From a virus, in the IMG/VR virus record IMGVR_UViG_3300024999_000091, positions 4,256-68,255 of that record: a stretch of 64,000 nucleotides of DNA; one strand, given 5' to 3'. Both the position numbers and the translations under genes were made by a program. Below, piece after piece: positions 1,440 to 58,306 of the stretch. Position 1 is the stretch's first letter, and every line of letters starts with the position of its first letter. The notes under the pieces were generated by a model, which had not been told where the DNA came from, searched no databases, and saw only the letters and a list, made by a program, of their open reading frames with translations.

Positions 1440-1466
1440 TAATTTGTACTAAGTTGTTCAAAAAGT

Positions 1467-1494
1467 TTGACTGTTCTATGTAGTATGGTATTCT
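1467..1494 (+). promoter_or_regulatory. Sigma70-like promoter upstream of replication genes
   Basis: TTGACT-N16-TATTCT with TG extension, in an AT-rich intergenic gap. Confidence 0.5.
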
Positions 1495-1581
1495 TACGCC
1501 ATCGCTTAGCGGATGGCACCCGCGCAGTAAGGGCGATAAACCAGAATTACAGGTGACATGTTGAATAATCGAAACTTTTTT

Positions 1582-1675
1582 AAAATGGCAAGCAGCTGGA
1601 CGTGCCAAACTATTCCACCTTGGGTACCTGTGCCCTTGGAAGGTGGAATAGGTCCAGCTGCTTGCCATTTTTTTT
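1582..1675 (+). ncRNA. Long bulged hairpin ending in a U-run (C4/CI-like antisense RNA or attenuator)
   Basis: AAAATGGCAAGCAGCTGGAC/GTCCAGCTGCTTGCCATTTT 20-bp stem plus CTATTCCACCTT/AAGGTGGAATAG stem, with GTGCCAAA and TTGG bulges. Confidence 0.55.
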
Positions 1676-1685
1676 GGTGAAACCT

Positions 1686-1835
1686 ATGCGAGAAAAAGAT
1701 GACATAGATGATGATTTTGAAGATTGGATAGAAAGATTGCGCGAGTACTCCAAGGAGAAACGAGAAATTTTTGAATCTGGAATGCCTTTCTCGCAGGATG
1801 TTCACGAAGAACTGATTGATAATCATAGGGTGTGA
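1686..1835 (+). CDS. Small acidic hypothetical protein (49 aa)
   Basis: ATG immediately after the hairpin; stop overlaps the replication-gene start (GTGTGA). Confidence 0.45.
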   Translation: MREKDDIDDDFEDWIERLREYSKEKREIFESGMPFSQDVHEELIDNHRV

Positions 1836-2779
1836 CTGTGGGCACATCATCGACAAGATACAGGACAGTGCATTGTCTGATATGGAATGATGATAAATTT
1901 CCTTATATGTCCGACTATGGAAAACTCGTTTTTCTTCACCTCCTCACCACAACGTTTTCATCACCATTCGGTTGCTTTAAGGCGGGGAAAGCATCGCTCC
2001 TTGAAGAGTCTCGAATGAACCTCGAAGGGTTTGGCAAAGGGTTTGCCGAAGGGTTAAAAGCAGGTTTGTTTAAATATGACGAAAGGACCCTTACTATCCT
2101 TCTTCCAAACTTTCTGAAACACAATAAACCGGCAAATCCGAATGTGGTAAAAATGTGGGGAAAACTGTTTTCAGAGTTGCCTGACGGACCATTGAAAAAC
2201 GAGAATTACTTATTAATAAAAGCATGTTGCGAAGGGTTAGGTAAAGGGTTTGCCGAAGGGTTTGCCGAAGGGTTTAGGGAACCATGTCGAAACCATATGC
2301 CAATACAGGAACAGGAACAGGAACAGGAACAGAATAATAACAACCTTTCCGCTTCTGACGAAGACGGTGGAGTAAAAGAGGTTGAAGAAGAGACTTTTTA
2401 CCTTTCAAAGAAAAAACGAAAATTAAAAGGAAAGGTTCTTGAAAATTTCAATCTTTTCTGGGCAGCTTTTGCTTACCCGAAAGCAAAAGCTGAGGCAGCT
2501 GACGCCTGGTTGGACGTATATTCGCAAAATCTCGTCGACGCCATTATAAACGCCGCAAGAATCGAAGCAGCAGAGAGACCGAGAATTATCGCTCAGGGGA
2601 AAACACCAAAGTACGCCCAAGGTTGGTTGTCGGGGAGAAGGTGGGAGGATTCACTCGGGGAAGATGGTAGCAATAAATTATTCGACTGCGAGCGATGCAA
2701 TTACAAACTCAACCACCAAACCACATGCTGGAAAGAGGGCCGTAAAACATGCTCATCATACCAGAAGGTTGAGTTATGA
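1832..2779 (+). CDS. Phage replication initiator / replisome organiser (lambda O-like position)
   Basis: N-terminal IWNDDKF...KLVFLHLLT wHTH-like region, internal iterons, QEQEQE linker, C-terminal FWAAFAYPK...WL..RRWED; coupled to dnaB. Confidence 0.85.
   Translation: MTVGTSSTRYRTVHCLIWNDDKFPYMSDYGKLVFLHLLTTTFSSPFGCFKAGKASLLEESRMNLEGFGKGFAEGLKAGLFKYDERTLTILLPNFLKHNKPANPNVVKMWGKLFSELPDGPLKNENYLLIKACCEGLGKGFAEGFAEGFREPCRNHMPIQEQEQEQEQNNNNLSASDEDGGVKEVEEETFYLSKKKRKLKGKVLENFNLFWAAFAYPKAKAEAADAWLDVYSQNLVDAIINAARIEAAERPRIIAQGKTPKYAQGWLSGRRWEDSLGEDGSNKLFDCERCNYKLNHQTTCWKEGRKTCSSYQKVEL
2024..2332. repeat. Putative replication-origin iterons
   Basis: 12-bp GAAGGGTTTGCC-like repeats at 2024-2055 and 2231-2275, (CAGGAA)4 at 2306-2332, then A-rich sequence. 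Mirrored at about 57414-57722. Confidence 0.7.
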
Positions 2780-4113
2780 ACGCGCCGCACAGTCTTCAAT
2801 CAACAAGAGTCCCGCCGCAGAATATAGAGGCCGAGATGTCTATCATCGGCACATGCATGCTTTACCCAGACGCTGTGACAACCGTAGTCGCAGAGCTTGC
2901 CCCGCAGGATTTTTACAAGACGCATCACCGAAGTATTTTTGAGGCAATTTATTCTCTTTGGCACAAGAGGGTCAACGTCGACCTTGTAACCGTTTCGTCT
3001 TTCCTGAAGGATATTTCGAAACTTGAGGAGGTCGGAGGTTTCGCATACCTGTCATCGCTTTGTGCTGTGGTCCCGATAAGGTCAAGAATAAAAGATTTTT
3101 GCCAGATCGTGAAAGAGAAGGCGAAAGCACGGCAGTTGATCAAGGTCGCCGAAGAAATCGCCGGATCATGCTATGACGGTGCCCCGGTAAATGATCTGGT
3201 GAATGAGTTTGGCCAGGAGATCGTTAATCTGTCCACCGATGACACCGAATATACCAGGGATATCTCCGTCATCACTGATTCGTTACTCAAACACATCACC
3301 GAAATCCATAATGGTGAGAAAGACACGTTTGGGCTTCCAACCGGATTTGCTGATTTCGACAGCCTGATTGGAGGCCTACAAAAAGCAGAGGTGACTATTA
3401 TTGCCGGCCGGCCAGCGATGGGGAAAACCACATTTGTCATGAATATCGCCCATCATGTGGCTAAGGCCGGGACGGGGGTGTTGATTTTCTCAATGGAAAT
3501 GGCATCTGAAAGGCTGGTACAAAAACTCATCTCGACCATCTCTGGCGTGAACACCAAAAAAATGGATCGGGGTTTAATGACGCCTGATCAATTAAAGGCT
3601 GTTCAGGAAGCGGCAATTTTTCTAAAGAAACTGCCAATCACCATTGATGAAAGCTCTGCCCTTGGTATCACCCAAATTCAAGCCAGAGCGAAAATCCAGG
3701 CCATGAGGCGATCTATTGGCCTGGTGGTTGTCGATTATATGCAACTCGGGAAAGCCAAGGCAGTTTCCAGGGAGCAAGAGATTACCGCAATTTCTGCAGG
3801 GCTTAAGGCTTTGTCGAAAGATTTAAATGTGCCGGTCATTGCCCTATCACAGCTTTCCCGGAAATGTGATGAGCGACCGGACAAGAAACCAATGATGTCT
3901 GATCTCCGGGAATCTGGTTCGATTGAACAAGATGCAGGGGTTATTGCCTTCATCTATCGGGATGAGGTGTATAACACGTCAGAAGACAATCCGTTACGAG
4001 GATTGGCTGAAATAATCGTGAGGAAAAACAGATACGGCGATCCTGGAACTGTGAAAATGTTCTTTGATGGGGGCCGGTGTAGGTTCGGCGATATGGTTCA
4101 GGAAATAAACTAG
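2776..4113 (+). CDS. dnaB: Replicative DNA helicase
   Basis: PPQNIEAE, GRPAMGKT (Walker A), SMEM, VVDYMQL, LSQLSR, DLRESGSIEQDA, KNRYG. Confidence 0.97.
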   Translation: MNAPHSLQSTRVPPQNIEAEMSIIGTCMLYPDAVTTVVAELAPQDFYKTHHRSIFEAIYSLWHKRVNVDLVTVSSFLKDISKLEEVGGFAYLSSLCAVVPIRSRIKDFCQIVKEKAKARQLIKVAEEIAGSCYDGAPVNDLVNEFGQEIVNLSTDDTEYTRDISVITDSLLKHITEIHNGEKDTFGLPTGFADFDSLIGGLQKAEVTIIAGRPAMGKTTFVMNIAHHVAKAGTGVLIFSMEMASERLVQKLISTISGVNTKKMDRGLMTPDQLKAVQEAAIFLKKLPITIDESSALGITQIQARAKIQAMRRSIGLVVVDYMQLGKAKAVSREQEITAISAGLKALSKDLNVPVIALSQLSRKCDERPDKKPMMSDLRESGSIEQDAGVIAFIYRDEVYNTSEDNPLRGLAEIIVRKNRYGDPGTVKMFFDGGRCRFGDMVQEIN

Positions 4114-5847: not shown

Positions 5848-7005
5848 ATGAAAGGTCAAAAAAGCACAACCACCAAACTGCCGGCGGCAACCGCGGCAAA
5901 TCAAGGCGCCCTGGAAGTAGCTCAAGCGAGCGTCTCCGAGCGGTTCATGAACATGGTCATCAAGGAATTCGGTTCCGGTGTCGGGGAGATCGCCCTGACC
6001 AAGGCGCAGAAACGCCTTGCTCAGAATTACTTCATGGCAATTGATACCGTTCTGAAGGTGGCCGAAGAAAAGCGCCTGAAGAAATCGGAAAAATACCGAG
6101 ACCAGTTGGCGATCACCTGGAACAACGTCAACAAAGAACTCCTCGCTCGAAACGTGGTGGCAGCAGCCAGGATCGGATGGGATCCTCTTGAAAAGAACCA
6201 CGTCCACATGATTCCGTACAAGAACAATACCACTAATCTCTACGACATCGGCTTCATTCCAGGATATCGCGGTCTGGAATTGAAGGCTGAAAAATATTCC
6301 CTCGGTGAGCCGCCTATCGTGATTTGCGAACTGGTCTATTCAAACGACAATTTCCAAATATTCAAGAAAGGTCAGGGCAACGAGGTTGAATCCTATATCT
6401 TCAATGTCGAAAATCCTTTCAACCGCGGCGAGATCGTTGGCGGATTCTATTACCACTCATACAAGGATCCTGCCCGCAACCGGCTCGTCGTGATGTCCTT
6501 GGCCGATATCCTCAAGCGCAAACCGAAGTATGCCAGCACTGAATTTTGGGGCGGGGAAAAGGATGTTTGGGAGAAGAACGAGAAGACCGGGAGGAGCGAA
6601 AAATCCGGCACCGAAAAGGTTGATGGTTGGTTCGATGAAATGTGCCTTAAGACCATCAAGCGGGCGGCCTACGGAAATATCACCATCGACAGCCAGAAGG
6701 TGGACGATAATTACCAATCTCTTCTGCAGAACGAGGTGTCGGTGCGAGATGCTGAGAACCGACAGGAATACGAACAAGAGGCCAATAAGGAAGCGATTGA
6801 CATAACCGCGACAAATGTTGAGGAGTCGAGCGATCAACCGCCACCGGGGAATGTCGATACCAATACCGGCGAGATGAAAGAAGAAGAGCCCCCTCTTCCC
6901 GATGAGCCGACAGGCGGACAAGAAATGTCTTCACAGGAAGCCGACAAAGCCCTCGCCGAGCAGGAAGATAAGCAACCGGCACGAACCGGTCGGGCGCCGT
7001 TCTGA
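5848..7005 (+). CDS. recT: RecT-family ssDNA annealing protein
   Basis: HMIPY, GYRGL, ELVYSND.F, RGEIVGGF, EMCLKTIKR; acidic tail; AAGGAG RBS. Confidence 0.8.
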   Translation: MKGQKSTTTKLPAATAANQGALEVAQASVSERFMNMVIKEFGSGVGEIALTKAQKRLAQNYFMAIDTVLKVAEEKRLKKSEKYRDQLAITWNNVNKELLARNVVAAARIGWDPLEKNHVHMIPYKNNTTNLYDIGFIPGYRGLELKAEKYSLGEPPIVICELVYSNDNFQIFKKGQGNEVESYIFNVENPFNRGEIVGGFYYHSYKDPARNRLVVMSLADILKRKPKYASTEFWGGEKDVWEKNEKTGRSEKSGTEKVDGWFDEMCLKTIKRAAYGNITIDSQKVDDNYQSLLQNEVSVRDAENRQEYEQEANKEAIDITATNVEESSDQPPPGNVDTNTGEMKEEEPPLPDEPTGGQEMSSQEADKALAEQEDKQPARTGRAPF

Positions 7006-15052: not shown

Positions 15053-18000
15053 CTATTTGTTCTCACCTACGACATATTTTGAATATCCGATTGACCGGCG
15101 AATGGGGTATTCGGTCTGCCCGGTGGCCGCGTCATAAACACCTTCGAATGTCCGCTGTATTGGTTTTGTTGGGATTCCGGCGAAATAGCCGAAGGTATGA
15201 ACCATTCCGAGAAGCGACTGCTCAAGATATTCATCAGGGGAAATTCGCTCCGTGCCGCCCTGCAGAAATTTAAAGAAATCGCTCACGGTTTCCTTGCTGG
15301 TGCTGAACGCCTCTGACACTGGCGTGAACTCGTCTCCGAAATATCCTTGCCCGGTGATCGCCTGAGAATACCCCTCCATGATGGTTCGGATGATTGGCAG
15401 TCCCTGGAAAGGACCGAGAGCGATACCTTTCGCCTGGTTCTTCAGGAAGCGCTCCTCGTCCTCATCGTCGCCGTCGATAATCATCAAGGCGTCGGCAATG
15501 GCCTGGAAAATAACGGGCAGAAGGACGCCGAAGACAAAAAGCCGTTTGGCCGAATCCTTCGGGTCTGCCCTCATGTTTCTCACAGCCATGAATATCTGCC
15601 GGCTGTAACTGGCCGGCGCCGTCATGAACATGGTGAAGAGTTTCATGATCGGGGTGCCCTGCTGGAACCAACCAAGATCCTTGGCCGCTCCAGACTGTTG
15701 GGACCGCTCGGTTGCCTTCTCGAACTCATCGAGGGCCTGCTGGTCAGCTTCCCGGTGAGACATGCCGCCCGCCTTGAGTTTGTCCAGGTGGTATTTATAG
15801 ACGGCGTACCCACCAGTGAGAACGGAAAACTTGTCACCCAGCTGCACCATCACCATAACGGCATCTCTCCCCCGGCGATGCTGGGCAATTATGTTGTCGC
15901 CGCCCATCTTCATGGCGGCGGCCACGTCCCGCTCGAAGCCCTGCTTATATCTGGACTTCATCATGGTCGACCGGCCGAGAATCCTGGCAACCGTGATCGG
16001 GTGAGCCATGGCATAACCAGTGTGCTTAAACCAATCGGCAACAGGAACGTCAGCCATGTATGCCGGAATGGCGGTCATTTGCTTGAGGAAAACGACGGGG
16101 TTCAGGCCTACCATGGCCCGGGTCACGTTGCCGCGTACTCGGTCCAGAAAGTGCAGATCATCGACAATCTCCCGGTCGCTCTTCACAAATCGATCCTGGA
16201 AGAACCGGATGGTCCGCATGGTCGACCGGCCGTAATGCTGCCGGATGAACTTCTGCACTGTAGGGCTGTTGAAGGTGCCGTTGATCTCCCGGGTGGGAAT
16301 CGCCCACGCCTTGAAGTGGTTCATGTCGGCAATGTGATTAACCAGGATGTCGTTGACGTTCTGCATCTTGAACGGTTTGGTATTTCGCACCCGGGACCGC
16401 AAGGATCCCTTCTTGATGCTGCCGGTCTCTATGCCGGATAGCATGCCCTCCTTCTCCTTGTCTGCCGCCTTGCCGGTCACCTCCCGGCGCCATGGCACAT
16501 AGTTGGCCGTCTTATCCAGATCGATACCGTAAACCTGCCGATACACCTTGTTCGTGTCGTCGTGGAAGTCCTGATAGAAATCGGCAACGAGATAGTCTGC
16601 CCACGCTTTCAGTTTTGGGCCAATCAGCTTTTCAATCTCATCGATGGTCTTGCCGTCGATACCCATGCCCTCGAAGGTCTCGGCCACTACCGGGTTTTCC
16701 ATGTCCCGGCTGATCTGATACCAGTAAGCGGCCTGCAGGGGAGAGATGGTCACGGCCCGCCGTTCCCCCTTGTCGCCGAAAGCGATGTGTACCTTGCCTT
16801 CTACCTGCTGGCCGAGTTTCGCGAAGGTCTTGGCGAGAGCCACGTTGTCTTTGACGCCAAATATCTCCACGGCCTTGTCCATGACCCTCTCATGCGTCTC
16901 CATCTGCATGCGCTCGTAATCCCTGGTGGCCTTGTGAGCGATGCTGCCGAAGTGCTTCACCATCCATGACTGCAGGGTCTTGCCACCTGACTTACGGCTG
17001 ATCTTGTCGAGCATCAACTCCCAACTTTGGATGGAGTTTGCCGTAGCCGAAAGGGCTTCTTTCACCTTGCCGGTGGCGCTCTGTTCCCGGGCAACTCGCT
17101 GGCTCTTCTCAGCGATGGTCTCCGGAACCGGTTCATCTTCGCCGGTAATTTCCTTAATGGCCTTTTCCCGGTTCGCCTTATTGCGCTCCTTCCAGGTTTC
17201 AAATTGTTCCCGCCACGGCGCCCGGCCTTCCTCAAGGACATCGGACATCGACCGGTAAGCTCTCACCACCTCGTCAAAGGTTTGGGCCTCGATACCGCCG
17301 AAGATGGCGAGCAGGTTGCCGAAGGATTCCATATCGGCTATCTGCTCCTCGACCCGCTCCTGCTCCTGGGGAGTTTTGGCCTGCTGTAGCTGATCTTGGA
17401 GAATGAGGTGTTGCTGGTGCAGGCGGTCCTGCTCGAGTTGCAACTCCACCCGGGAGTCCGCCGTCTTGCCGATCTTGAAAGCGATGCCACGGAGATATTT
17501 CAGGTCGCGCTCGAAGGCCGCCCCCCGGCCGCGCCGCACCCTGTCTTTCTTCATCCGCAAAGGGGCAACGGCCTTTTCCAAGCGCTCAATGATCTCGTCT
17601 TTGAGGTATCCGGCCAGGGCCTTATTGCCGTGGATAAGGAAGTTCCGCAGGCGCTTCTGCTGTATCGCCTGATCCTTCACCCGGCTGATCTGCGACAGTT
17701 TGTTGAGCAGTTCCGCCCGGGGTTCCGCCGGAAACTTGTTGACGAAGTTCGCCGCGAACTGCTGTTTGGCCGCCGCCGACTTCAGCGGATCTTTGATTGC
17801 GGCCCGGGCGGCCCGGAATGCCTCGAGTGCTTCGTCAACCTTTTTGGCACCAAACCGATTCTTGGCCACGGCCGGCGATGACACGGCAGCCAGTTTTCGC
17901 ATGATCTCGGCAACCAGTTTCTCTCCGTGGGTCAGGCTTGCGTCGGAAACCACGCCGTCTACCGTGGCGTTCAGGATTGTGGTGTTGCGGGCTTCCTGGT

Positions 18001-21000
18001 AACTGTCGGCGGTAAGGTCTGGACTGCTCTTGCTTTTCAAGAGGACATCGCGCACGTCCTGCCCTTCTTTCAAAAGCCCTTCGGTTTTCAGCATCTTTTC
18101 CATACTGAGCCACGGCGGCCGCACTTTTCGCGCTGCCGGTGGCAAGTTCAGGCGATACTGAACAAGCCTTGCTTCAACCTCTCCGACTCGTCGGTAATAT
18201 GATTCCGGCTCGGAAGCGTCATATCTTGTTCCAGTTGCAAAACCTTCGTGATGCTGAATGATGTGCTGAGTCTCGTGCTGAATAACGCTGCGCTGCACGG
18301 CATGGCTCATCCTTGAGTTCACGAATATCGTCTTCGTGGCCTGATCCAACAACCCTCTTCTGTTCGGACCCAAAGCCCTGAAACTGATTTCGTAATCATT
18401 GAGGAACGGGTAGTTGGCGAACAGTTGACGATGCTTCAAGGCATCGCTGAGTTTTCCCTCCTTCGGTTCTATCGAGGAAAGGCTGTCGTCAATCTCGAAG
18501 CTCCATTGCCCCGGGACGATTTCCCACCATCCGGTTTCCGCCCATATCTCTTCTCTCGGCTGGCCGTCGGCCTTCATCTCTTTGGCCGTGGCCAGTTTGC
18601 CGCGGTCGGCGGCGGTCGCTTTCTCGCCTGCGAAGGAGAAGGAAACACCTTCGCTTTTCCCTGCCGGCGATGAAGTAGCGCGAACTGCTTTTGCGGCCAT
18701 GGCCTTAAAGTCATCGACAGATAGGAAATTGACAAACCGCTTCCCGAACACCCGCAGCATGATCTTCTTGATTGCCGCCATAACCCGGCGAACCGGCCCG
18801 GCTGCCGGAGCGTCCTCGACCATGTAGGCAAGAACCTCGCTCCAGTAGTTCTCCGGTTTCGTGTCGGCTGGCACCCTGGCCATTGCCGCTCTGATTGCCC
18901 GGCCGGTCCTGCCGGTTTCCTTCTGGCGCTTCTCGAGCGAGCCTTCTACCAGTTGATACTCACGATCGGCGAGCAGGAGCTTCCGGAGATGGACGCCTAC
19001 CTCGTGGTTTAGGACATCGGCGTCCCGGCCCGGCTGGATGCCGTCGGCCACCAGCCATACTTTTTCACCGTTGGTAAAGCCCTGGATGGTCTTGCCGTCG
19101 GCTGAATATAGGACTTCGACTATCGAGACGTCTGCGTCATTGAAGATGACGTAGTTGTGGACGGGTCCGCGCGGAACCAGGTCACCCCGTTCCAAGGCAT
19201 CAGCTGCCACGTCTTTCCCTTTTTCCCTTAGATGAGTAACGGCTTTAGGGATATCCTCGACCATCATCAGCATGGCAGATTCGGCATCATTTTTTACATC
19301 GTTACTGCCATCCTTACCGTTGGCCCATTCGAGTTGAAAGTTAACACCACGACTGCTGGCGTCGAGGTATTTGATGCCGCGGATACCGAGGGAGTGGAGG
19401 TATTTGGAGGCGGCTTGGTCGTTCCTGCGATCCCCTTTATCTTTCACATCTCCAAGAGATGACGATATTCGTTCGTATATGCCGCTTCCGGAAAAATCAA
19501 GACCAGTATCTAGTAGTTTCCCTATGATGGCATTATTGTCCCATGCACCGGCATCAAGCGCCGTCCTAACCTTCTTCGACTGTTCCGATAGTGGCTTATC
19601 CCACAGCAGATATTCGTCTTCGGTTGGGGCGAGATCAACCTTGTATAGGTTTCCTGCCGGTTTTCCCCACGCCTTATCAGTCGCATCCCAAAGTTTTTCT
19701 TTATTCTCCTCAATAAAGCCTCTTGCATCGGCGACAGCATAACCTGCTTTTCTTACCGCTACTGCCGAGCGCATACCGGCGGGAGATTCATTTTTAAATT
19801 TAAATATCTCAACAACCAGATTGTGTGGCGCTTCCGGAATCAGGCGCTTGAACTCGTTTATAAAGGCCCCGATCTTTGGTGACAGTGTGGTTCGGTAAAA
19901 ATCTGCCACCTCCTTGTTCCCGGCAAAATAAAGCCCATACCCGTAAGATTGGTTACCTTCACCGCTCCCGATCTTCGATGAAGAAAACTTGTCAACGGTG
20001 TGCGGGGTGCCATGCCATGCGGCAGAATACTTCTTCTCCCCGCGCAGGCCAGCGATAATCTTCCGCGCCTCCTCCTGGTTGCCGACGATAGCCATGGTGC
20101 CCTGCAGGGATTCAAAGACATCGGCACCGAGTTTTGCGCGGAGCTCCTCCTCTACCTGGGCGACTGTGCGGCCGGAAGATTCCCCAGATTTCGAGTATTG
20201 CGTATTATCGTCGGACTGCGCCTGATTGCCCCCGGCAGGCCTTCCGCCGGTCACGGTCAGGATCTTGTGGTTCTTTAATATCCGCTCGAGAACCGCATTG
20301 CCATCGGTACCGGTCGGTATGAAGTTCCTAGTGATGTAGTTGATTCTCTCGGTGAATGCGCCATAGTTCGACAGGATATTGTAATCGCCGTAGCCGGTAC
20401 CTTCTACCTCCATGCGGTTCTCGCCGGCCACGCGCCTCCTGATGATCTTCCACTTGTTGTCGAGGTTGAGTGTCTGCCCGTTCTGCAGGATGGTATCTTG
20501 CGCCTGCTTCGGCGTCATCTCCACGGCCTTTCCTTCGACATCCAGGAGGGCCATAACCTCAGAGATGTGTTCCCCGGCAATCATCCGGCCAAGCATCGTT
20601 TCGGTGCCGGTCTGCACCCGGATAATCTTCGGGTGCCCGACAAGCTTATCCCAGATAGGCAGAAGTGCCCCGGTGATAAGGTGTTCTCTTTGGGTGACGA
20701 TATCAGGAATCGCCTTCAGCGCTTCGTTCCATCTTTCGAGCGCTTCAGCCTTGTCGGTGATAGAGGTGAATTTCTCTTCAAAGCCTTCTTTCTCGACCTT
20801 CCGTATCGCATTCCTGCCGTTTCTGAGAGTGATATGGTCAACGATATTTCCAGCCTCGTTGGTAGAACTGCTTTGACTAACGATCTGCCACGGCATACCG
20901 CTGTGATTGTTCACCACCATTCTTCGTTTTGAATCGAACGGCACCTTCTCAACGCGGTGGTCGACATCCAGTTGCACGTATTCGGTAACGGCGCCTGATC

Positions 21001-24000
21001 GCTGCTCGGTATAGACGGTCTGCTTATCAACAACCCTGATGGCTTTAGCCTTCAAGGTTTCAAGTCCGACATCCAGCGTCCCGTTTTCCTCTGCCCGGGT
21101 GACATTGGCATCGAGATAGGTTGAGAATAGATCGAAGACCTTGTTCTGCATATCGATCTTCATACTGAGAATCCGGTTAAGGAATCTCGGCACGGTCGGA
21201 ATCTGTGTGCTGTTCAGCCCGCCATGCTCGTCAACGAGGTTCGGCAAGCCGAGCTCACGGACCAACATCGACATGTCGATACCATTGACGTTGCCGCGGT
21301 AGACATTGGTGATGAGCTGTTGAACTGCATCAACGGCGTACTCGCTCTCGAGGTTGTCGCGCTCTGAGAAAAGCCCCTGAGAGGATGCCGTGCGCTGTCC
21401 TTCGGTGAGCGCCCCCAACTGTGACAGTTTCCTGGCGATGGAAGAAATAAATCTCTTATGTCCCTTGAGGTCTGTGGTGACTAGGACATACTCAGGGGCA
21501 ACTGCCTGGTTCGATCGATGTGACCGGCCAAGGCCCTGCACCGCGCTATCTGCCCGCCATCCTGCCTGCAAGATGTAATGGCTGCGCTGCCGCTTGTTGA
21601 CGGCCGAGTTGTCGGCGTGATAGCTGGCCCCGGTGCCGCCCGCTTCGGAGAAGATGAGAATCTGCTTCTTGTCGGCCATGAACTGCGCGGCATCGGCAAC
21701 ACCCTTGGTCTTGCTCCATCCCTGCCGTATTTTCCTGGGGCCTGAGCCATCATCAACGGTGACGATCCGCTTCGACCTGCCGGTGACCTCTGCCACCTTG
21801 TCGACACCGAAGACATTGAGGATCTGGTCGAGCGGCGCGTCCGGCACTTTGATGCTGCCGAGTTTATCCAGCAATTCTTCCCGCATGGCAACGGCCTCAC
21901 GGTTCACCACCGGATTTCCATCGGAATCGACGACCGGCCGCGTCCGCTTGTTGCCGTCCTCATCCTCGTATTCCTCGTATTGCTGGATCGGGAAGGAATT
22001 CTCGATCATCTGCATGAGTTGGTCGCGCGGGGTGATATCGACATCCTCAAGCGACTCGGCATTGGCCAGTGCCCGGTTGGTGCTGGCCTCGTTGGTGTTG
22101 GTGATCTGCAGGACAACGGCCTTGCCGTCCTTGATATCCTGCTTGATTGAGGTGATGACCGACGGCATCTGCATGGCCGTCAGCACCTGGTTGAAGAATC
22201 TTTGATGAGATCCCCAGAATGCCGACAAGGCATGGCTCTTGCCGTTGGAATCGGCCTCGGTGATCTGCAGGGCTTCGTCGATGTTTTTCAGGACAAGTTG
22301 CCAGGCCCCGGCGAGCTCATCATAGATTTCGCGCTGCTGGCCGGATAGTTCATGCTCAAGGCGACGATACTTCACCTGATACGCCTTATTCTTGCCGTTG
22401 TAGGCGAGCTTCCTGGCCAGGTAGCTGCCCATGGCCTTCATATCCCGGGCGACGACCTCCATGGCCGCGATGCCGCCCTGCGATATCTTGCCGATGAAAG
22501 CCGTCGCGTTGGCGAATGGCGTACCTTCCCCCCATAAACCGAGACGCTCGGCATAGGCGAGGTTGCTTACTTCGGTGGCTCCGGTTGCCGAGACATAGAC
22601 AATCTTCGCCTTCGGCAATGCCCGCTGCAGATCGAGAGCGGAGAGAGCCATCTGGGAGGGCTTCTTGGTGAACCGGCCTTCCTTAATGGATATGGCATTC
22701 CCCATCTTGTGGGATTCGTCGAAGGCGACAACCCCGTCGAAATCAGGACCGGCCCAATCGATAATTGCCTGGAGGCGGGAAAGCTGCCCTTCTTTTGCTG
22801 CGGAAGAAACGGTTGAGTAGGCGGTGTAAAGCACACCGTCTCTGTTTGGGATGGCCTGGCCGGCCTTCACCGCGCCCTGCTCGATGATCAAATCACCGGA
22901 CCAGCCGATACCATCCATATCACGATTGGCATCCTTGGCAAGGGTCCGATCCTTGCTGATCCATATAGACTTCTTGCGGCCCTGGTTCCAGTTGTCGAAG
23001 AGAATGCCGGCAATCTCCCGGCCCTTGCCGACACCGGTACCGTCGCCGATAAAGAAGCCCCTGGTTTCCCCGTTCGGTAGGGTGTCCTGGTGCGCTTGGC
23101 CGGCGGCGGTAATCGCCTCGAGTTGAACTTCACTCAGTTTGCCGGAGGTGACTGTCTCTTTCGGAATGCTTGGCTGGTATGTGATGTTGGGAAGATTGAC
23201 GGCGGCCATGGCCGCGCTTTCAACGAGGTCGGCGGGGTGAGGCTTCGCCCCCTTGATAACTACGGTTGGTTGGTAGCCTTCAAAGACGGAATCAGCTGAC
23301 TGCTGCTGCTTTTCCTGGCGGGTGGTCTCTAAAGTGTCTGTTCTCGGTACAGGCTCTCCATTCTGTCGAGTATTTTCCAGGCCAACTCCTTGGGCGTTGT
23401 TTTGCTGTCCGCCGTCGACACCGGAATCCCCTCGTCCTGGTTCAGGTCGGTTACCTCCTGCATCCATTCCGCCGGCTTCCACTGCAGCATTTGGCCTATC
23501 CTGTCTTCTACTTCCTGGCTTGTTTGCATCTCCCCGCTGGCCAGTGCCCATGTCAGCAGTTGTTGGAGATACAGCCTGCTGCTGTTTGGCTCCAGTTTCA
23601 GTTGCAGGAGTTTCTTCTTGGCCAGTTGGTTGATTGGTTTCTCGTTGAGCGGTAGCGGTTCTGTCATCTCTCACCCCCTGGAGTAGAGAAATCAGGTCGG
23701 CGTAGTTGTCCACCTTCCCGGTTATTACAGCATTTGTCGTCGGACTCGTTTTGTCAATGACGAGAAGTTGATTATCGAACGTGGTGCCATACTTCCGGTA
23801 TCCCTCGCCATTCATCCCGACATTGGCGCGGACATTATACTTTGCGCTGATAACCTTCCACCATTGCCGGAACATAGGCTTGTCGCTGCCCATTCCCTCG
23901 CCGACGATGGCCACGAGCCGCCCGCCAGGCTCCAATCTTTTCAGCGCCTGCTCGATATGCGCGGCACCAAACTTGGTTTTGTTTTTACTGAGTCTGCCGC

Positions 24001-27000
24001 CGGTTGCCGAGAAAGGAGGATTCATGACGATGACGGTCGGCTTCACTGCGGCCGGCAGGATATTGTCGAGCTGCTCGGCATTCTCGCTGTAGACCGACGT
24101 GAACCCCATTTCTTTTAGCACATCCCGGCGCCGGTCGCTCAATTCGTTCACGGCGATATCTCCGACACCGGCAATCTTGCCGAACACGGCCAAGCCGCCG
24201 ATACCCGCCGACGGCTCAAGATATGAGTCGGTGCGCTTCAGGTTCACAACCCAATTGGCGACATAGGCCAATGGAGGAGGAGTCGAGTACTGCTGGAACT
24301 TGTCCTGCTCTTCTGTTCGCTTGGTCTGCGTCGGGACCAAGGAGAGGATTTGCTCAAGTTCCTTGATTTGCTGAACAGGCTCATTGCTCTTGAATTTGAA
24401 ATTGTCGGCGAGGTATTGGTTGATGCCAAGCTCAAGGGCGTCGTAGGCGTCCTTTGGGGTATATTTCCCCTCGCTTTGTTTTCCGCTGTAGGCTTCATTG
24501 GCCCACTTAAAAAGGTTGTCGGTTCTTATCTTTTTCCCCGACGACAGCCATTCTTTCACGTTGCGGGCAATCTTGGCTGAAGGTGTCCTTGGAGTAGCAG
24601 ATTTGTCACTCGAAACTTCAGCAAGGTGAGCGTCTACTTCCGCCGCGCTACTCATCCCGTCCTTGTCGATCCCCGGCCAGTGCCGAAGGTTCTCATAGGT
24701 GCCGCGAAGAAACGGGCGGAACTCGGTGCCGATGTCGGCGAGAACGGTTTTCGACCAGTCGGCAAACTTGCGGATTCCGGATTCGAAGTAGGCCCCACCG
24801 AGAACAAGAAGGTCCTGCATCAGCTCGGGGTCAAAGCCGGCTGACAAGGTGCCGCGTTTCGCTTTCAGCCTTTCCCGGGCGGCGGCCACGGCGTCGGCGG
24901 TGAAGACTTTGTTGTTGGAAAAAGGATCTGCAGTTGCCCCGGGTGTCGCTTTGGGCGTGAGGTCTTTCAGGATTGATGGAACCACTTTCGGCTGCTCTTC
25001 ACCGAACAGGTACATATGGGCTGAATCAGTATCTGCCTGGTAGAATTTGTCGGCCTTCATGGCCTTCGACAAGGTGACGTTGTAATCGTCGCCCCGCGCT
25101 TCCGCCTCTGCCCGGTAGTTGTCGATGAGCCATTGATTCGACTTCGCCGTATCCCGTTTGGTGGTTCGCTTGGTACTGTACTTCGGGTACGGAGTAGTCT
25201 GCCGGCCGGTGGCCGTGGTGAAGACGTCGCCGGGCATGATCGTCTTGCCGTCTTTCCGGCGGCCGTCTTCGGTGAGAGTGGGCGCTACTCCTCCCGGAAC
25301 TCGTGGCTCTTCGGATACCGGTGCGTTTCCGGCGGCTCCCATTCCAGAAACGGGTCCGGTGCGATCTTCATTTCCTCTTCCTGGACTTCCATTTTCACCG
25401 GCTCCTGTTGTTCCGCCGTCATTGGTCTGCTCCTTGGGTAAATGTTCCTCGCGAATGAACCACCCGTCATCCTTCTTGAAGGTGAATGGGTCGATGGCCT
25501 TGGCCTCTTTCCACTTGAGGTCGGTCTGGACTATGCCGCGGATGGTCTTGCCTTTTTTGGTGGTGTACTCAATGATCTCGGGCGAACTTCCTACGCTGTA
25601 TGTATTAGATATGTTGCCATTAGATGAATTGCCTGGTATGGTAGGTGTATCATCAATTTTACTTAGAGGTTTATTATGGGTATCGGAAGACCGAGTTCCG
25701 GAGGGCACATCAGAAGGTTCCCTCGTCACAACACCAGCTATAGGCTTATCAGTGTTGCTGTCGATGGCATCAGAAGGCAAAGGTTTGAGCACAGGCTCGT
25801 TATGGAGCAGTTCCTTGGCAGAAGGCTTAGGAGGGGTGAGATCGTCCACCATCTTGACGGGGATGGGCTCAACAACTCCATCGATAATCTTTCCCTTATC
25901 ACCCAAGCCGAGCATGTCGACATTCACAGACTCGGGCTTTTGTCCTGGTCTTTGGATGCTGCCGTTTGTCTTCGCGGAGAGGGGTGCTCTTTCGCTGAGA
26001 TCGGCTCTATCGTTGGAGTTTGCGCCGCCTCCATCCAAGCCGCTTTTAAGAGAAGGGGTATTGACACCGGGGGGAGGCCCATCATTTACACTTGGGATTT
26101 CAACTTGGCCGTTCAGCTTTTCCGCGATGGCGTTTCCATTAGAGACATCGCCAAGACTGTTGGCACCGGTTCCAGCACCATAAAGCGTAGTTTCCGCAGG
26201 AGAGGAATTGCTTCGTGATTTCGGGATAGCAACGAATCCATCACGGAACTTCTCGATATCGTAATCTTCAGGGCTATTCCCTTGAGCGGTAATCGCCTTC
26301 TTTATGGAATACCTGTTTTTATATGGCGAACCGTCTTCTTTCTTGACGATGCTTTGCGCGTTTCCGCCGCCCATCAATTCAAATCCTTGGCCAGGGGGAA
26401 GGAGGGGCGTCTCGCCCGCCGACTGCCGGCGCTTCATCTCCTCATCAGCCTGCAGCCTGGCAAAGCCCTTACGCCGCACCTTGACATCCGCCTGGTCCTG
26501 CTCATCCTGCGCCTGGTCGGCGAAGTCGTACATCATGTCGTTGACTTCGCCTGGGTCCACGCCCTGCAGATCCTTCTCCTCGTCGTACTGCGCCTGAATG
26601 CCATGGGGAAGCTCGGGGGAATACGGCTGTTCGCCGCGGGCCTTCGCCTGATTGTATTCGGCGGCTGCTGCCTTCTGCTGCTCCCATTCGTCTTGCATCG
26701 GGCCGGAAGCGTCCACGCCCTGGCCCGGCACCGGAATACCGAGAAACCGGAAAACCCCATCGCTGACCAATCGGTCCTTGGCGTCCTGGGGAACATCCGG
26801 GTCGTTGAAAAACTGCAGGGCGGCGTTCACCCGTTGCCCGCGGTCTTCATCGGTTTCGATGGTGGTGCCGGTGAGGACTCCTGAAAGATCGGCTGCCGCC
26901 ATGATATCTGGTGATTCTGCCGGAACCGCTGGTTGATCGGTCAAACTTTCGGTAAGTATTTTTTCCACCTCACCGCCGAGCGGGTCGGTTTCGAGATCCT

Positions 27001-28150
27001 TACCGCTGTCCATGAAACTGGTGGTAACGTGGAATCCGCCGCCGCCAAGGCCCATGGCCGCGCCGATCAGCCCGCCCTCGGCTGATGCTTCAGGCACTCC
27101 TTGATTCCATGGCTTGCCGGTGGCGAGGTTCATCCACACGGTTTCCTGTGCGCTCTGCGGCATCTCCTCAAGCATTCCCTCGGTGAGTCCGCTGCCAACC
27201 AGGGCTTTGCTGATAGCGCCGACGGTCATCTTCTCGCCGGGTTTTCTCGAGACGCCGGCCAGGAGGGAATCCACATCGGGCAATCCAAGCCTGTTGGCGA
27301 TCTTGCCGCCGAGCAGGGTAAGGAGTCCGGTGCCGGCACCGGCCGCAAGGGACATGCCTGTTTGTGCCAACGTCCTGTCGCCGGTTTCTTGCTGGATACC
27401 TTCGGCTGTCGCGCCTGCGGTGAGCGCACCTTCGCCGACAGCTGATGCGGCAATCCTGCCGGCCGTGGTTGCGCCGATAACCTTAGGGGCAATGGAAGCC
27501 AGGCCCCGGGCAATGCCGCCGGCACCGACGAGTTGGGGTAATGCCCGGGACACGCCGTGGACGATGGAAGACGGATTTTCCACCATCGCCTCAAGTTTGC
27601 CAGTGAAGCCCTTGGCCTGCGCTACTTTCTCGTTTGCCGCCTGCTGGGCCGGGGAATACAGATCGTCAATGACATCGTGCGTCGTCTTCGCGTCGTAGCC
27701 GACATAATCGAGTGCCTTGTCGGTGAGCCCGCCGGTTGCGATACCAGCCAAGCCTTTCACCGCCTCACCGGTATCCACCACGCCGTGGGCGAGGGAAACC
27801 CCGACATCTCCCAAGGTGCCGAGCACGGTTCTTTTCGGTGCTTGCGGAGTTTCGACAGCCGGTTGCGGCTTCCGCTGCTTCAACTCATCGAATATATTTC
27901 CACGCCTGACTGGCTCCTGTTCATTTAAAGCATATGTGGTGGTGCTGCCGCCATCGTCGTTTTCTGTTTTGGTTACGGCGATAGGCGGTCGCGTATCTAC
28001 CTGGCCGAGTGACGATACCTGCGGCGCCAGTTGATCTTGACGGGTAACTGGCGATGGAACAGGCGATACCGATAATGGTTGCTCTGTGGCTTCAGGAGCG
28101 GCGCTGCTCAGTGCTGGTTTATTTTTCAACTCGTCGAAGATAGTTGCCAT
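15053..28150 (-). CDS. Giant DarB-like polyvalent virion protein (MTase, Strawberry-notch-type SF2 helicase, ART-like, metallopeptidase/LPD domains)
   Basis: 4365 aa; LEPSAGIGGL and NPPF; GDGTGVGKG, FDESH, SATGA, QGLGRSHRSNQ; HGTPH...GSGEGNQSYGYGLYF; HEVGVH; HETQH. Confidence 0.9.
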   Translation of the reverse strand: MATIFDELKNKPALSSAAPEATEQPLSVSPVPSPVTRQDQLAPQVSSLGQVDTRPPIAVTKTENDDGGSTTTYALNEQEPVRRGNIFDELKQRKPQPAVETPQAPKRTVLGTLGDVGVSLAHGVVDTGEAVKGLAGIATGGLTDKALDYVGYDAKTTHDVIDDLYSPAQQAANEKVAQAKGFTGKLEAMVENPSSIVHGVSRALPQLVGAGGIARGLASIAPKVIGATTAGRIAASAVGEGALTAGATAEGIQQETGDRTLAQTGMSLAAGAGTGLLTLLGGKIANRLGLPDVDSLLAGVSRKPGEKMTVGAISKALVGSGLTEGMLEEMPQSAQETVWMNLATGKPWNQGVPEASAEGGLIGAAMGLGGGGFHVTTSFMDSGKDLETDPLGGEVEKILTESLTDQPAVPAESPDIMAAADLSGVLTGTTIETDEDRGQRVNAALQFFNDPDVPQDAKDRLVSDGVFRFLGIPVPGQGVDASGPMQDEWEQQKAAAAEYNQAKARGEQPYSPELPHGIQAQYDEEKDLQGVDPGEVNDMMYDFADQAQDEQDQADVKVRRKGFARLQADEEMKRRQSAGETPLLPPGQGFELMGGGNAQSIVKKEDGSPYKNRYSIKKAITAQGNSPEDYDIEKFRDGFVAIPKSRSNSSPAETTLYGAGTGANSLGDVSNGNAIAEKLNGQVEIPSVNDGPPPGVNTPSLKSGLDGGGANSNDRADLSERAPLSAKTNGSIQRPGQKPESVNVDMLGLGDKGKIIDGVVEPIPVKMVDDLTPPKPSAKELLHNEPVLKPLPSDAIDSNTDKPIAGVVTREPSDVPSGTRSSDTHNKPLSKIDDTPTIPGNSSNGNISNTYSVGSSPEIIEYTTKKGKTIRGIVQTDLKWKEAKAIDPFTFKKDDGWFIREEHLPKEQTNDGGTTGAGENGSPGRGNEDRTGPVSGMGAAGNAPVSEEPRVPGGVAPTLTEDGRRKDGKTIMPGDVFTTATGRQTTPYPKYSTKRTTKRDTAKSNQWLIDNYRAEAEARGDDYNVTLSKAMKADKFYQADTDSAHMYLFGEEQPKVVPSILKDLTPKATPGATADPFSNNKVFTADAVAAARERLKAKRGTLSAGFDPELMQDLLVLGGAYFESGIRKFADWSKTVLADIGTEFRPFLRGTYENLRHWPGIDKDGMSSAAEVDAHLAEVSSDKSATPRTPSAKIARNVKEWLSSGKKIRTDNLFKWANEAYSGKQSEGKYTPKDAYDALELGINQYLADNFKFKSNEPVQQIKELEQILSLVPTQTKRTEEQDKFQQYSTPPPLAYVANWVVNLKRTDSYLEPSAGIGGLAVFGKIAGVGDIAVNELSDRRRDVLKEMGFTSVYSENAEQLDNILPAAVKPTVIVMNPPFSATGGRLSKNKTKFGAAHIEQALKRLEPGGRLVAIVGEGMGSDKPMFRQWWKVISAKYNVRANVGMNGEGYRKYGTTFDNQLLVIDKTSPTTNAVITGKVDNYADLISLLQGVRDDRTATAQRETNQPTGQEETPATETGAKQQQAVSPTTADMGTGQRGDANKPGSRRQDRPNAAVEAGGMDAGGNRPEPGRGDSGVDGGQQNNAQGVGLENTRQNGEPVPRTDTLETTRQEKQQQSADSVFEGYQPTVVIKGAKPHPADLVESAAMAAVNLPNITYQPSIPKETVTSGKLSEVQLEAITAAGQAHQDTLPNGETRGFFIGDGTGVGKGREIAGILFDNWNQGRKKSIWISKDRTLAKDANRDMDGIGWSGDLIIEQGAVKAGQAIPNRDGVLYTAYSTVSSAAKEGQLSRLQAIIDWAGPDFDGVVAFDESHKMGNAISIKEGRFTKKPSQMALSALDLQRALPKAKIVYVSATGATEVSNLAYAERLGLWGEGTPFANATAFIGKISQGGIAAMEVVARDMKAMGSYLARKLAYNGKNKAYQVKYRRLEHELSGQQREIYDELAGAWQLVLKNIDEALQITEADSNGKSHALSAFWGSHQRFFNQVLTAMQMPSVITSIKQDIKDGKAVVLQITNTNEASTNRALANAESLEDVDITPRDQLMQMIENSFPIQQYEEYEDEDGNKRTRPVVDSDGNPVVNREAVAMREELLDKLGSIKVPDAPLDQILNVFGVDKVAEVTGRSKRIVTVDDGSGPRKIRQGWSKTKGVADAAQFMADKKQILIFSEAGGTGASYHADNSAVNKRQRSHYILQAGWRADSAVQGLGRSHRSNQAVAPEYVLVTTDLKGHKRFISSIARKLSQLGALTEGQRTASSQGLFSERDNLESEYAVDAVQQLITNVYRGNVNGIDMSMLVRELGLPNLVDEHGGLNSTQIPTVPRFLNRILSMKIDMQNKVFDLFSTYLDANVTRAEENGTLDVGLETLKAKAIRVVDKQTVYTEQRSGAVTEYVQLDVDHRVEKVPFDSKRRMVVNNHSGMPWQIVSQSSSTNEAGNIVDHITLRNGRNAIRKVEKEGFEEKFTSITDKAEALERWNEALKAIPDIVTQREHLITGALLPIWDKLVGHPKIIRVQTGTETMLGRMIAGEHISEVMALLDVEGKAVEMTPKQAQDTILQNGQTLNLDNKWKIIRRRVAGENRMEVEGTGYGDYNILSNYGAFTERINYITRNFIPTGTDGNAVLERILKNHKILTVTGGRPAGGNQAQSDDNTQYSKSGESSGRTVAQVEEELRAKLGADVFESLQGTMAIVGNQEEARKIIAGLRGEKKYSAAWHGTPHTVDKFSSSKIGSGEGNQSYGYGLYFAGNKEVADFYRTTLSPKIGAFINEFKRLIPEAPHNLVVEIFKFKNESPAGMRSAVAVRKAGYAVADARGFIEENKEKLWDATDKAWGKPAGNLYKVDLAPTEDEYLLWDKPLSEQSKKVRTALDAGAWDNNAIIGKLLDTGLDFSGSGIYERISSSLGDVKDKGDRRNDQAASKYLHSLGIRGIKYLDASSRGVNFQLEWANGKDGSNDVKNDAESAMLMMVEDIPKAVTHLREKGKDVAADALERGDLVPRGPVHNYVIFNDADVSIVEVLYSADGKTIQGFTNGEKVWLVADGIQPGRDADVLNHEVGVHLRKLLLADREYQLVEGSLEKRQKETGRTGRAIRAAMARVPADTKPENYWSEVLAYMVEDAPAAGPVRRVMAAIKKIMLRVFGKRFVNFLSVDDFKAMAAKAVRATSSPAGKSEGVSFSFAGEKATAADRGKLATAKEMKADGQPREEIWAETGWWEIVPGQWSFEIDDSLSSIEPKEGKLSDALKHRQLFANYPFLNDYEISFRALGPNRRGLLDQATKTIFVNSRMSHAVQRSVIQHETQHIIQHHEGFATGTRYDASEPESYYRRVGEVEARLVQYRLNLPPAARKVRPPWLSMEKMLKTEGLLKEGQDVRDVLLKSKSSPDLTADSYQEARNTTILNATVDGVVSDASLTHGEKLVAEIMRKLAAVSSPAVAKNRFGAKKVDEALEAFRAARAAIKDPLKSAAAKQQFAANFVNKFPAEPRAELLNKLSQISRVKDQAIQQKRLRNFLIHGNKALAGYLKDEIIERLEKAVAPLRMKKDRVRRGRGAAFERDLKYLRGIAFKIGKTADSRVELQLEQDRLHQQHLILQDQLQQAKTPQEQERVEEQIADMESFGNLLAIFGGIEAQTFDEVVRAYRSMSDVLEEGRAPWREQFETWKERNKANREKAIKEITGEDEPVPETIAEKSQRVAREQSATGKVKEALSATANSIQSWELMLDKISRKSGGKTLQSWMVKHFGSIAHKATRDYERMQMETHERVMDKAVEIFGVKDNVALAKTFAKLGQQVEGKVHIAFGDKGERRAVTISPLQAAYWYQISRDMENPVVAETFEGMGIDGKTIDEIEKLIGPKLKAWADYLVADFYQDFHDDTNKVYRQVYGIDLDKTANYVPWRREVTGKAADKEKEGMLSGIETGSIKKGSLRSRVRNTKPFKMQNVNDILVNHIADMNHFKAWAIPTREINGTFNSPTVQKFIRQHYGRSTMRTIRFFQDRFVKSDREIVDDLHFLDRVRGNVTRAMVGLNPVVFLKQMTAIPAYMADVPVADWFKHTGYAMAHPITVARILGRSTMMKSRYKQGFERDVAAAMKMGGDNIIAQHRRGRDAVMVMVQLGDKFSVLTGGYAVYKYHLDKLKAGGMSHREADQQALDEFEKATERSQQSGAAKDLGWFQQGTPIMKLFTMFMTAPASYSRQIFMAVRNMRADPKDSAKRLFVFGVLLPVIFQAIADALMIIDGDDEDEERFLKNQAKGIALGPFQGLPIIRTIMEGYSQAITGQGYFGDEFTPVSEAFSTSKETVSDFFKFLQGGTERISPDEYLEQSLLGMVHTFGYFAGIPTKPIQRTFEGVYDAATGQTEYPIRRSIGYSKYVVGENK
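23329..23667 (-). CDS. Nested +1-frame gene inside the giant gene (112 aa)
   Basis: AGGGGGTGAGAG before ATG; helical protein-like composition; spans the low-complexity MTase-helicase linker. Confidence 0.5.
   Translation of the reverse strand: MTEPLPLNEKPINQLAKKKLLQLKLEPNSSRLYLQQLLTWALASGEMQTSQEVEDRIGQMLQWKPAEWMQEVTDLNQDEGIPVSTADSKTTPKELAWKILDRMESLYREQTL
25285..25422 (-). CDS. Nested +1-frame small acidic gene (45 aa)
   Basis: AAGGAG 7 nt before ATG; overlaps a G/R/P-rich linker of the giant protein. Confidence 0.4.
   Translation of the reverse strand: MTAEQQEPVKMEVQEEEMKIAPDPFLEWEPPETHRYPKSHEFREE
25676..26218 (+). CDS. HNH endonuclease with two C-terminal HTH-like repeats, nested antisense in the giant gene
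   Basis: EHRLVME..LGR.L...EIVHHLDGDGLNNSIDNL.....EH...H; AGAGGT RBS; TTGCCA-N17-TATGGT at 25614-25642. Confidence 0.85.
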   Translation: MGIGRPSSGGHIRRFPRHNTSYRLISVAVDGIRRQRFEHRLVMEQFLGRRLRRGEIVHHLDGDGLNNSIDNLSLITQAEHVDIHRLGLLSWSLDAAVCLRGEGCSFAEIGSIVGVCAASIQAAFKRRGIDTGGRPIIYTWDFNLAVQLFRDGVSIRDIAKTVGTGSSTIKRSFRRRGIAS

Positions 28151-28202
28151 TCTTTCTTCCTGGTGGATGTTTGTCTGGTCTTAAACCTGCCTCAATAAAG
28201 CA

Positions 28203-57914: not shown

Positions 57915-58070
57915 ACCCTATGATTATCAATCAGTTCTTCGTGAACATCCTGCGAGAAAGGCATTCCAGATTCAAAAATTTCTCGTTTCTCCTTGGAGTA
58001 CTCGCGCAATCTTTCTATCCAATCTTCAAAATCATCATCTATGTCATCTTTTTCTCGCATAGGTTTCACC

Positions 58071-58164
58071 AAAAAAAATGGCAAGCAGCTGGACCTATTC
58101 CACCTTCCAAGGGCACAGGTACCCAAGGTGGAATAGTTTGGCACGTCCAGCTGCTTGCCATTTT
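58071..58164 (-). ncRNA. C4/CI-like hairpin (copy)
   Basis: Mirror of 1582..1675. Confidence 0.55.
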
Positions 58165-58306
58165 AAAAAAGTTTCGATTATTCAACATGTCACCTGTAAT
58201 TCTGGTTTATCGCCCTTACTGCGCGGGTGCCATCCGCTAAGCGATGGCGTAAGAATACCATACTACATAGAACAGTCAAACTTTTTGAACAACTTAGTAC
58301 AAATTA

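Follow-up and report, generated by a model that had tools for sequence, protein, structure and literature searches.

We analysed a 64,000-nucleotide stretch of viral DNA (the window, bases 4256-68255 of the 68,255-bp IMG/VR virus record IMGVR_UViG_3300024999_000091), in which an HNH endonuclease gene lies on the opposite strand inside the gene for a 4365-residue polyvalent protein. We read this gene as a homing endonuclease insertion that the giant gene would read straight through, without splicing, and give this reading a probability of about 0.75. The expression of both strands, the nuclease activity, the target site and homing itself are parts of it that we infer. The HNH gene is probably selfish.

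The host gene occupies 15053..28150 on the minus strand (4365 aa; open reading frame (ORF) call and Pfam), and the HNH gene 25676..26218 on the plus strand (180 aa, ATG start; ORF call, Pfam, PHROG and an AlphaFold2 (AF2) model), so that the second lies entirely within the first. The distance 28150-25678 is 2472, or 3 x 824; the two frames are codon-aligned, and therefore every HNH codon stands opposite exactly one host codon. The part of the host frame opposite the HNH gene, which we call its mirror or shadow (25676..26218, minus strand; giant residues 645-825), is free of stops, and the host frame has none anywhere across the element. The original prediction of a fully nested, codon-aligned antisense gene with both frames open was thus correct, as was that of a ribosome-binding site of its own: a Shine-Dalgarno-like AGAGG (25665-25669, plus strand, called from sequence) lies 6 nt 5' of the HNH ATG. 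An in-frame TAG at 25664-25666, three codons 5' of the ATG, bounds the ORF. The GC content falls from 0.57-0.64 in the flanks to 0.47-0.54 over 25450-26350. Another ORF, of 341 codons with a TTG start (25158..26183, plus strand), overlaps the element in a frame different from that of the HNH gene; most of the element is thus open in three of the six frames, which is probably compositional.

The ORF at 25676..26218 is a genuine, intact HNH_3 plus helix-turn-helix (HTH) endonuclease gene. An HNH motif and two HTH-like repeats had been noticed in its translation, and both were recovered. Pfam HNH_3 (PF13392) matches residues 39-81 (E 7.4e-12, 45.1 bits against a cut-off of 24.8) and HTH_7 matches residues 133-173 (E 2.4e-6), while PHROG 59, 'HNH endonuclease', matches the 180-aa protein at E 9e-17. 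A tblastn search with the protein matched 325 phage records, 8 of them spanning at least 80% of the query; among the best matches are proteins of Flavobacterium phages and of phiKZ that are annotated as HNH endonucleases. H58, H59, D61, N66, N67, N71, H80 and H84 are invariant in 7/7 aligned members of the clade described below, and the conserved His and Asn residues presumably have the catalytic roles in the beta-beta-alpha metal finger of the protein. An AF2 model built from a seven-sequence alignment (mean predicted local distance difference test (pLDDT) 82.1) consists of an N-terminal beta-sheet and HNH core (about residues 1-87) and two three-helix HTH units (about 93-126 and 142-175). 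VIA-align placed residues 1-87 on I-HmuI (PDB 1u3e; Z 8.0, root-mean-square deviation 2.9 A, 81 aligned residues, 27% identity); the notes to the tool class a Z of 8 as borderline, but I-HmuI is the top row and the whole domain is covered. Residues 88-131 and 136-180 fell on HTH domains of a phage repressor and of Tn3/gamma-delta resolvase (Z about 6). Foldseek with the model against the PDB returned nothing at E <= 0.001 (I-HmuI stood at E 0.12, probability 0.98), and a PDB sequence search with the HNH profile returned designed or HTH repeat proteins only, with zero HNH chains at E <= 0.01. Within the phage, the HNH protein matches only itself.

The layout recurs throughout a clade of related nucleases. 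With the HNH protein or its alignment as the query, scans of IMG/VR, JGI metagenomes and GTDB genomes gave 11 distinct members at 40-67% identity, namely the window copy and L002, L003, L084 (identical to L238), L088, L083, L085 (identical to L243), L241, L242, L244 and L245. Each of the 11 has a full-length, intact HNH ORF, and opposite each of them the codon-aligned mirror frame contains no stop. For comparison, 78 other HNH ORFs with 100 codons or more were taken from the first scan; 4 of these have a stop-free mirror (Fisher p = 4e-11, on rows that are not independent and a comparison set that was not de-duplicated), and none is nested in a long open frame. At nine of the 11 loci the mirror belongs to a longer open frame, between 441 and 4365 codons in length (4365, at least 2875, at least 2444, 2373, 604, at least 441 up to a contig end, 2398, at least 3366 and 3114). 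In L002 and L003, the remaining two antisense frames hold 4-11 stops. L003 has a GGAGG at the same spacing from the ATG as the AGAGG of the window.

Pfam scans of the host frames, which left out the L241 flanks, found polyvalent-protein domains in seven hosts besides that of the window (L002, L003, L084, L085, L088, L244 and L245), the domains being InPase, AAA_34, ART-PolyVal, LPD1, LPD38 and ddrB-ParB; the hosts of L083 and L242 gave no match (L242 at 1e-4). The host gene of L085 and that of L241 are broken off at the element, and yet their mirrors stay stop-free over 208 and 229 codons, for which local codon usage gives P 2e-4 and 3e-3. It is possible that these two copies recently escaped from a read-through context, that their mirrors are separately translated ORFs or that the junctions hold frameshifts. 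Both are AT-rich (L085 at 5998..6534, GC 0.32; L241 at 1194..1757, GC 0.39), and their mirrors are rich in Phe, Cys and Tyr. The L242 copy (6001..6549, 52% identical) was found in a cultured bacterium, Aromatoleum anaerobium LuFRes1, on a 716-kb contig, antisense within the 2398-codon open frame; a prophage or another mobile element presumably carries it.

The mirror itself can be followed into protein databases. A profile of six mirror peptides matched 643 of 1.84 billion representative proteins at E <= 1e-3, 60 of them at E <= 1e-10 and 6 at E <= 1e-30. Among the best 150 of the 643, 95 are at least 1000 aa long, 24 have 300-999 aa and 31 have fewer than 300 aa. A scan of IMG/VR with mirror peptides returned four loci, all already in the clade set or identical to L084.

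The conserved unit in these loci is, on the pattern of substitutions, the HNH gene, whose frame is under purifying selection. Within their first 1500 residues, the giants of the window, L002 and L003 can hardly be aligned outside the part that faces the HNH gene, and nucleotide identity among the three jumps at the HNH ATG from about 0.1-0.3 to 0.6-0.7, with flanks that are unrelated. Over 125 shared codons in 21 pairs, HNH codon position 3 differed most often, position 1 less often and position 2 least, in 21/21 pairs, and amino-acid identity was 0.49-0.67 in the HNH frame versus 0.20-0.44 in the host frame. The comparison of nonsynonymous to synonymous rates (dN/dS, or omega) in both frames, suggested with the original prediction, separated them: by the Nei-Gojobori method (NG86), omega was 0.10-0.30 in the HNH frame for the 9 of 21 pairs with computable dS (dS being saturated in the other 12) and 0.63-1.32 in the host frame, NG86 being biased for overlapping frames, so that the contrast carries more weight than the values. 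Substitutions track the HNH frame, and the similarity in the host frame is therefore a shadow of the nuclease gene.

The codon choice of the nuclease gene bears on how the host frame stays open. The HNH gene never uses TTA, CTA or TCA, the complements of stops. Computed from host codon usage, the probability of a stop-free mirror is 0.0002 in L085, 0.0007 in L083, 0.003 in L241, 0.028 in the window, 0.10 in L088, 0.11 in L245, 0.18 in L084, 0.22 in L242, 0.24 in L003, 0.39 in L244 and 0.43 in L002. The Cys, Trp, Phe and Tyr content of the mirror was compared with 20000 synonymous resamplings per locus, stop-making codons excluded, under a null of host codon usage, which an incoming gene need not share. 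In the window, these residues number 1 of 180 against 11.1 +/- 2.9 expected, a count as low in 1/20000 simulations. The other read-through copies hold 1 against 9.2 expected in L003 (as low in 4/20000), 4 against 14.5 in L244 (1/20000), 10 against 20.6 in L083 (36/20000), 4 against 11.8 in L002 (69/20000), 6 against 12.3 in L084 (484/20000), 7 against 10.6 in L245 (2689/20000), 6 against 8.8 in L242 (3684/20000) and 6 against 8.7 in L088 (3798/20000). The count is thus under expectation in 9/9 read-through copies, with P < 0.05 in 6/9. No depletion was seen in the two copies with interrupted hosts, L085 (34 against 35.5; as low in 7884/20000) and L241 (44 against 35.4; 19829/20000). Because these residues are depleted where the host frame reads through and unbiased where the host is split, the codon choice suggests that the host gene is translated straight through the element. 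The mirror of the window had also been described as a linker rich in Ser, Asn, Pro and Gly, and indeed these four make up 41% of it, against 24% of the whole giant. A single-sequence AF2 run on giant residues 586-905 renders it as coil (pLDDT below 50), which sits between a folded module at about 599-644 and the beta hairpin of the next module.

Comparison with related giants points to an insertion. The nearest ones, taken from a collection of 5.8 billion proteins (P0003, P0004 and P0005), are 63-78% identical to the giant of the window over the C-terminal 1200-1800 residues. In an alignment of homologous giants of the kind first proposed for this locus, they match upstream of the insert at residues 360-586 (P0003, P0004) or 388-700 (P0005) of the window's giant and downstream at 774-1067 or 847-1103. 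All three hold both flanks in one protein, with nothing that matches the mirror, and an InPase domain (679-813 in P0003) and a linker stand in its place. Because the nearest giants align on either side of the mirror and not across it, the mirror segment is, judged by these alignments, an insertion and not a conserved host domain.

Six of the 11 copies stand next to an InPase domain. In five clade members besides the window, the HNH 3' end lies 0-25 residues past an InPase domain, and in L244 the element stands directly before one. Thirty-nine of the best 150 mirror matches carry InPase; 21 of these have a mirror that starts -10 to +60 residues from the InPase end, a further 8 have it no more than 72 residues away and 7 have it ending shortly before the domain, so that in 36/39 the mirror lies up to 72 residues after InPase or up to about 40 before it. 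The HNH gene was found in only 1 of the 80 best InPase-bearing IMG/VR loci, which is L003's own contig. An alignment of the empty site 3' of InPase in five nuclease-free loci was too variable in sequence to give the exact insertion point. The local contexts of the HNH copies are unrelated between hosts. This, the patchy distribution and the dip in GC are marks of a mobile insertion.

The assembly is well supported across the element. Logan contigs were available from four DNA runs of one groundwater study (at most three samples; the source sample may account for three of the runs), and those of all four runs are identical to the window across both element junctions, one contig of 12,644 bp being identical over 23930-28700. 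Contigs of run X4, from another sample, have 0 differences over 25163-25894 and 25932-26487, and therefore bridge both junctions.

Taken together, we propose that a free-standing-type HNH gene, with an I-HmuI-like core and two HTH units, has entered the giant polyvalent-protein gene at an inter-domain linker, in reverse orientation and in register. Nothing would be spliced out. The ribosome translating the host gene would read the reverse complement of the nuclease gene, adding about 180 disordered, hydrophilic residues between two folded modules, and the nuclease would be made from the opposite strand through its own start codon and Shine-Dalgarno sequence. The element would most likely spread when the nuclease cuts or nicks nuclease-free alleles in co-infecting relatives and is copied in at repair. 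The arrangement could work because TTA, CTA and TCA are absent from the nuclease gene and because A-ending codons that would give Cys, Trp, Phe or Tyr in the host protein are largely avoided. The splicing-free, antisense-encoded linker of the original prediction finds support in the substitution pattern, in this codon choice and in the negative Rfam and Pfam results given below. The two checks set in advance to overturn it both went its way: the HNH profile match is strong, and the nearest giants do not have the segment.

Several observations weigh against this proposal. The window copy does not adjoin InPase, in contrast to 6/11 copies. A closely related empty site could not be aligned at the DNA level, and no nuclease-free allele of the same phage was seen; no Logan contig joins the flanks without the element, although contig cover cannot show absence. 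The runs listed for the stretch are all DNA runs, none of RNA. A candidate promoter had been claimed for the HNH gene, and a sigma-70-like site exists (TTGCCA-17-TATGGT with a TG, 25614..25642, plus strand; weak evidence). However, this claim found no support, as the promoter scan gave 1 site against 1.0 in shuffles, which is not above chance, and the site is not conserved in L002 or L003. L002 also has no clear Shine-Dalgarno sequence. Avoidance of stops at single loci is modest (P 0.03 in the window, 0.1-0.43 in five GC-richer loci), and the depletion of Cys, Trp, Phe and Tyr is not significant in 3/9 read-through copies and depends on the host-usage null. To these one may add the saturation of dS and the bias of NG86 noted above. 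Finally, the antisense HNH genes that would be encoded behind the 643 mirror matches are predicted from the profile match.

Among the other explanations, the one that survives best, though improbable, is that the nuclease has been domesticated: HNH would be kept for the benefit of the phage, in packaging with terminase, in attack on host DNA or in phage competition, and would no longer be mobile. Purifying selection and the intact ORF in 11/11 copies would be expected of such a gene, and HNH proteins with roles beneficial to phages are discussed in a recent paper (PMC11855218). The patchy distribution (1/80 InPase loci), the absence from the nearest giants, the unrelated local contexts in different hosts and the GC dip all speak for mobility instead. 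It is distinctly less probable that the element is a decaying relic, a recent and unexpressed insertion in which nothing but the linker would matter, with inheritance and chance accounting for the two open frames. The lack of a promoter above chance would agree with a relic, and a stop-free mirror is not improbable in some GC-rich copies (P 0.2-0.43). However, the copies have diverged by 33-60% of their amino acids and are saturated at synonymous sites, and yet 11/11 ORFs are full-length with invariant HNH residues; moreover, the substitutions track the HNH frame and not that of the host.

A spliced element, either an intron with an antisense endonuclease gene or an insert otherwise removed, would leave a host protein without the mirror peptide. 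Such genes have a precedent, as antisense homing endonuclease genes are reported from nuclear group I introns (PMC9548176). Yet we consider splicing very unlikely here. Rfam cmscan of 24500-27500 on both strands gave 0 families at E <= 1, although cores unlike any Rfam family would escape it; the copies become similar at the HNH ATG and have no RNA core in common in their flanks; and an intron would need neither an open in-register host frame, as seen at nine loci, nor the depletion of Cys, Trp, Phe and Tyr. A group I or group II intron with an endonuclease ORF is not supported, no catalytic RNA core having been found by Rfam in that range. An intein was rejected, as the nuclease is read from the opposite strand and the Pfam list of the giant (six families at E <= 0.01) has no intein or Hint domain. 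The least credible alternative, that two genes flank the HNH gene or that the junctions are chimeric assemblies, draws on the interrupted hosts of L085 and L241 and is contradicted by the absence of a stop across the element in the window, by the presence of both flanks in one protein in P0003-P0005 and by the Logan contigs, including those of the run from another sample, that match both junctions with 0 differences.

A read-through antisense insertion would thus extend a theme that has precedents. The closest are the ShiLan domain and related 'hidden HNH' elements of mycobacteriophage DNA methylase genes (PMC11855218; Arsenault, Gosselin, Gogarten 2025). There, an HNH gene occupies the third frame of the same strand, the host gene is read across it with no splicing, and among close relatives its occurrence is disjunct. 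The two systems share a whole HNH gene inside a phage protein-coding gene, a host frame that is stop-free across it, the lack of an intron or intein signature, the disjunct distribution and an insert predicted as an extra loop in the host protein. They differ in strand: the ShiLan HNH gene is on the same strand and must be read from the host transcript, whereas that of the window is on the opposite strand, codon for codon, so that each HNH codon fixes one host residue, and has its own Shine-Dalgarno sequence. The hosts differ too, a polyvalent protein here and a stand-alone methylase in ShiLan. The words antisense, reverse, complement and opposite are absent from PMC11855218, and the antisense arrangement is unmentioned there. 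In a literature search with most subscription journals outside its coverage, we found no paper on an antisense, in-register HNH gene in a phage protein-coding gene. Splicing-free read-through insertion of an HNH gene has therefore already been published for the same strand (PMC11855218), and the antisense, in-register form appears to be new relative to that paper. The genes in nuclear rDNA group I introns (PMC9548176) share an endonuclease on the strand opposite the host gene; they differ in lying in introns of rRNA genes that are spliced out, with no two protein-coding frames overlapping.

Two classical arrangements can also be compared. I-HmuI, the intron-encoded HNH nicking homing endonuclease of Bacillus phage SPO1, has the same order of beta-sheet, HNH core and helical DNA-binding tail. 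Its gene is carried, in sense orientation, by a self-splicing group I intron, whereas the gene of the window is antisense, no intron was found and the tail consists of two resolvase-type HTH units. Free-standing phage homing endonuclease genes, of the T4 seg/mob type, lie between genes or break a gene in two. The element resembles them in its own start signals, its patchy distribution and its place adjoining conserved target genes, and L085 and L241, with the host gene interrupted at the element, resemble this classical form most directly. The difference is that in the window and eight other loci the host frame runs through the element. A review covers the free-standing class (PMC2988022).

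The host gene encodes a polyvalent protein, a multi-domain giant with an LPD module, a methylase and a Sno/SNF2-type helicase. Pfam matched AAA_34 (9e-110), Helicase_C_4 (2e-84), LPD23 (6e-19), DUF6782 (3e-7; DUF6782/M78 peptidase) and, weakly, ART-PolyVal; AAA_34 and Helicase_C_4 together form a Strawberry-notch (Sno-type) helicase at residues 1637-2365, and an NPPF methylase motif was spotted by eye in the translation. InPase has no Pfam match in the window's giant. In the slot that it occupies in the nearest giants, the window has a small folded module at about residues 599-644 (26219..26356, minus strand; from AF2), which ends at the 3' end of the HNH gene. In the single-sequence AF2 model, this module is one helix and a beta hairpin (pLDDT 83-89), and it matches no Pfam family.

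On the other side, the next conserved host module (about residues 855-905, 'KKGKTIRG...FKKDDGWFIRE'; 25436..25588, minus strand) starts about 30 residues past the mirror. It has 73% identity in P0005 and 45% across a longer stretch in P0004, and it occurs too in a methyltransferase of Bordetella phage PHB04, a 136-nt module of which was the only match when the region was compared with phages by blastn. No IMG/VR loci related to giant residues 461-1200, the insert region, were found. The module at 25457..25576 is also matched, with 13-18 differences, by contigs of other organisms or phages from the groundwater runs; at 25562/25576, some 100 nt short of the HNH start, these contigs pass into unrelated sequence, which fits related giant genes with a different neighbour module. 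A PHROG scan of six neighbouring genes gave two families only, both of unknown function. A mirror-image trio of ORFs (242, 315 and 445 aa) lies at both ends of the window (711..4113, plus strand, and 55633..59035, minus strand), and the IMG/VR record is classed with inverted terminal repeats.

From a biological perspective, homing endonuclease genes have, to our knowledge, been thought to persist in genes only by means of introns or inteins, or else between genes. Here, the nuclease and its host share codons on opposite strands and both appear under selection of different kinds, the nuclease for its sequence and the host frame for the absence of stops and a linker-like composition. This makes the locus a compact natural case of dual coding that is directly testable, and the copy in the cultured Aromatoleum anaerobium LuFRes1 makes experiments feasible. 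Gene callers rarely report an ORF that is fully nested antisense in a longer one, and such nucleases are therefore largely missing from protein databases. This is an annotation blind spot, and yet giant proteins show the mirror image by the hundred, with 643 representative clusters matched at E <= 1e-3. Finally, one could imagine, as a tentative idea that we hold at somewhat worse than even odds, that this HNH lineage has specialised for antisense life, with a codon usage moulded to make its reverse complement a harmless disordered linker in every case, which would let it enter the linkers of polyvalent proteins without splicing machinery. As the elements lie at module boundaries (36/39 near InPase), co-conversion of their flanks during homing could help drive the shuffling of polyvalent-protein modules and may be one of its engines.

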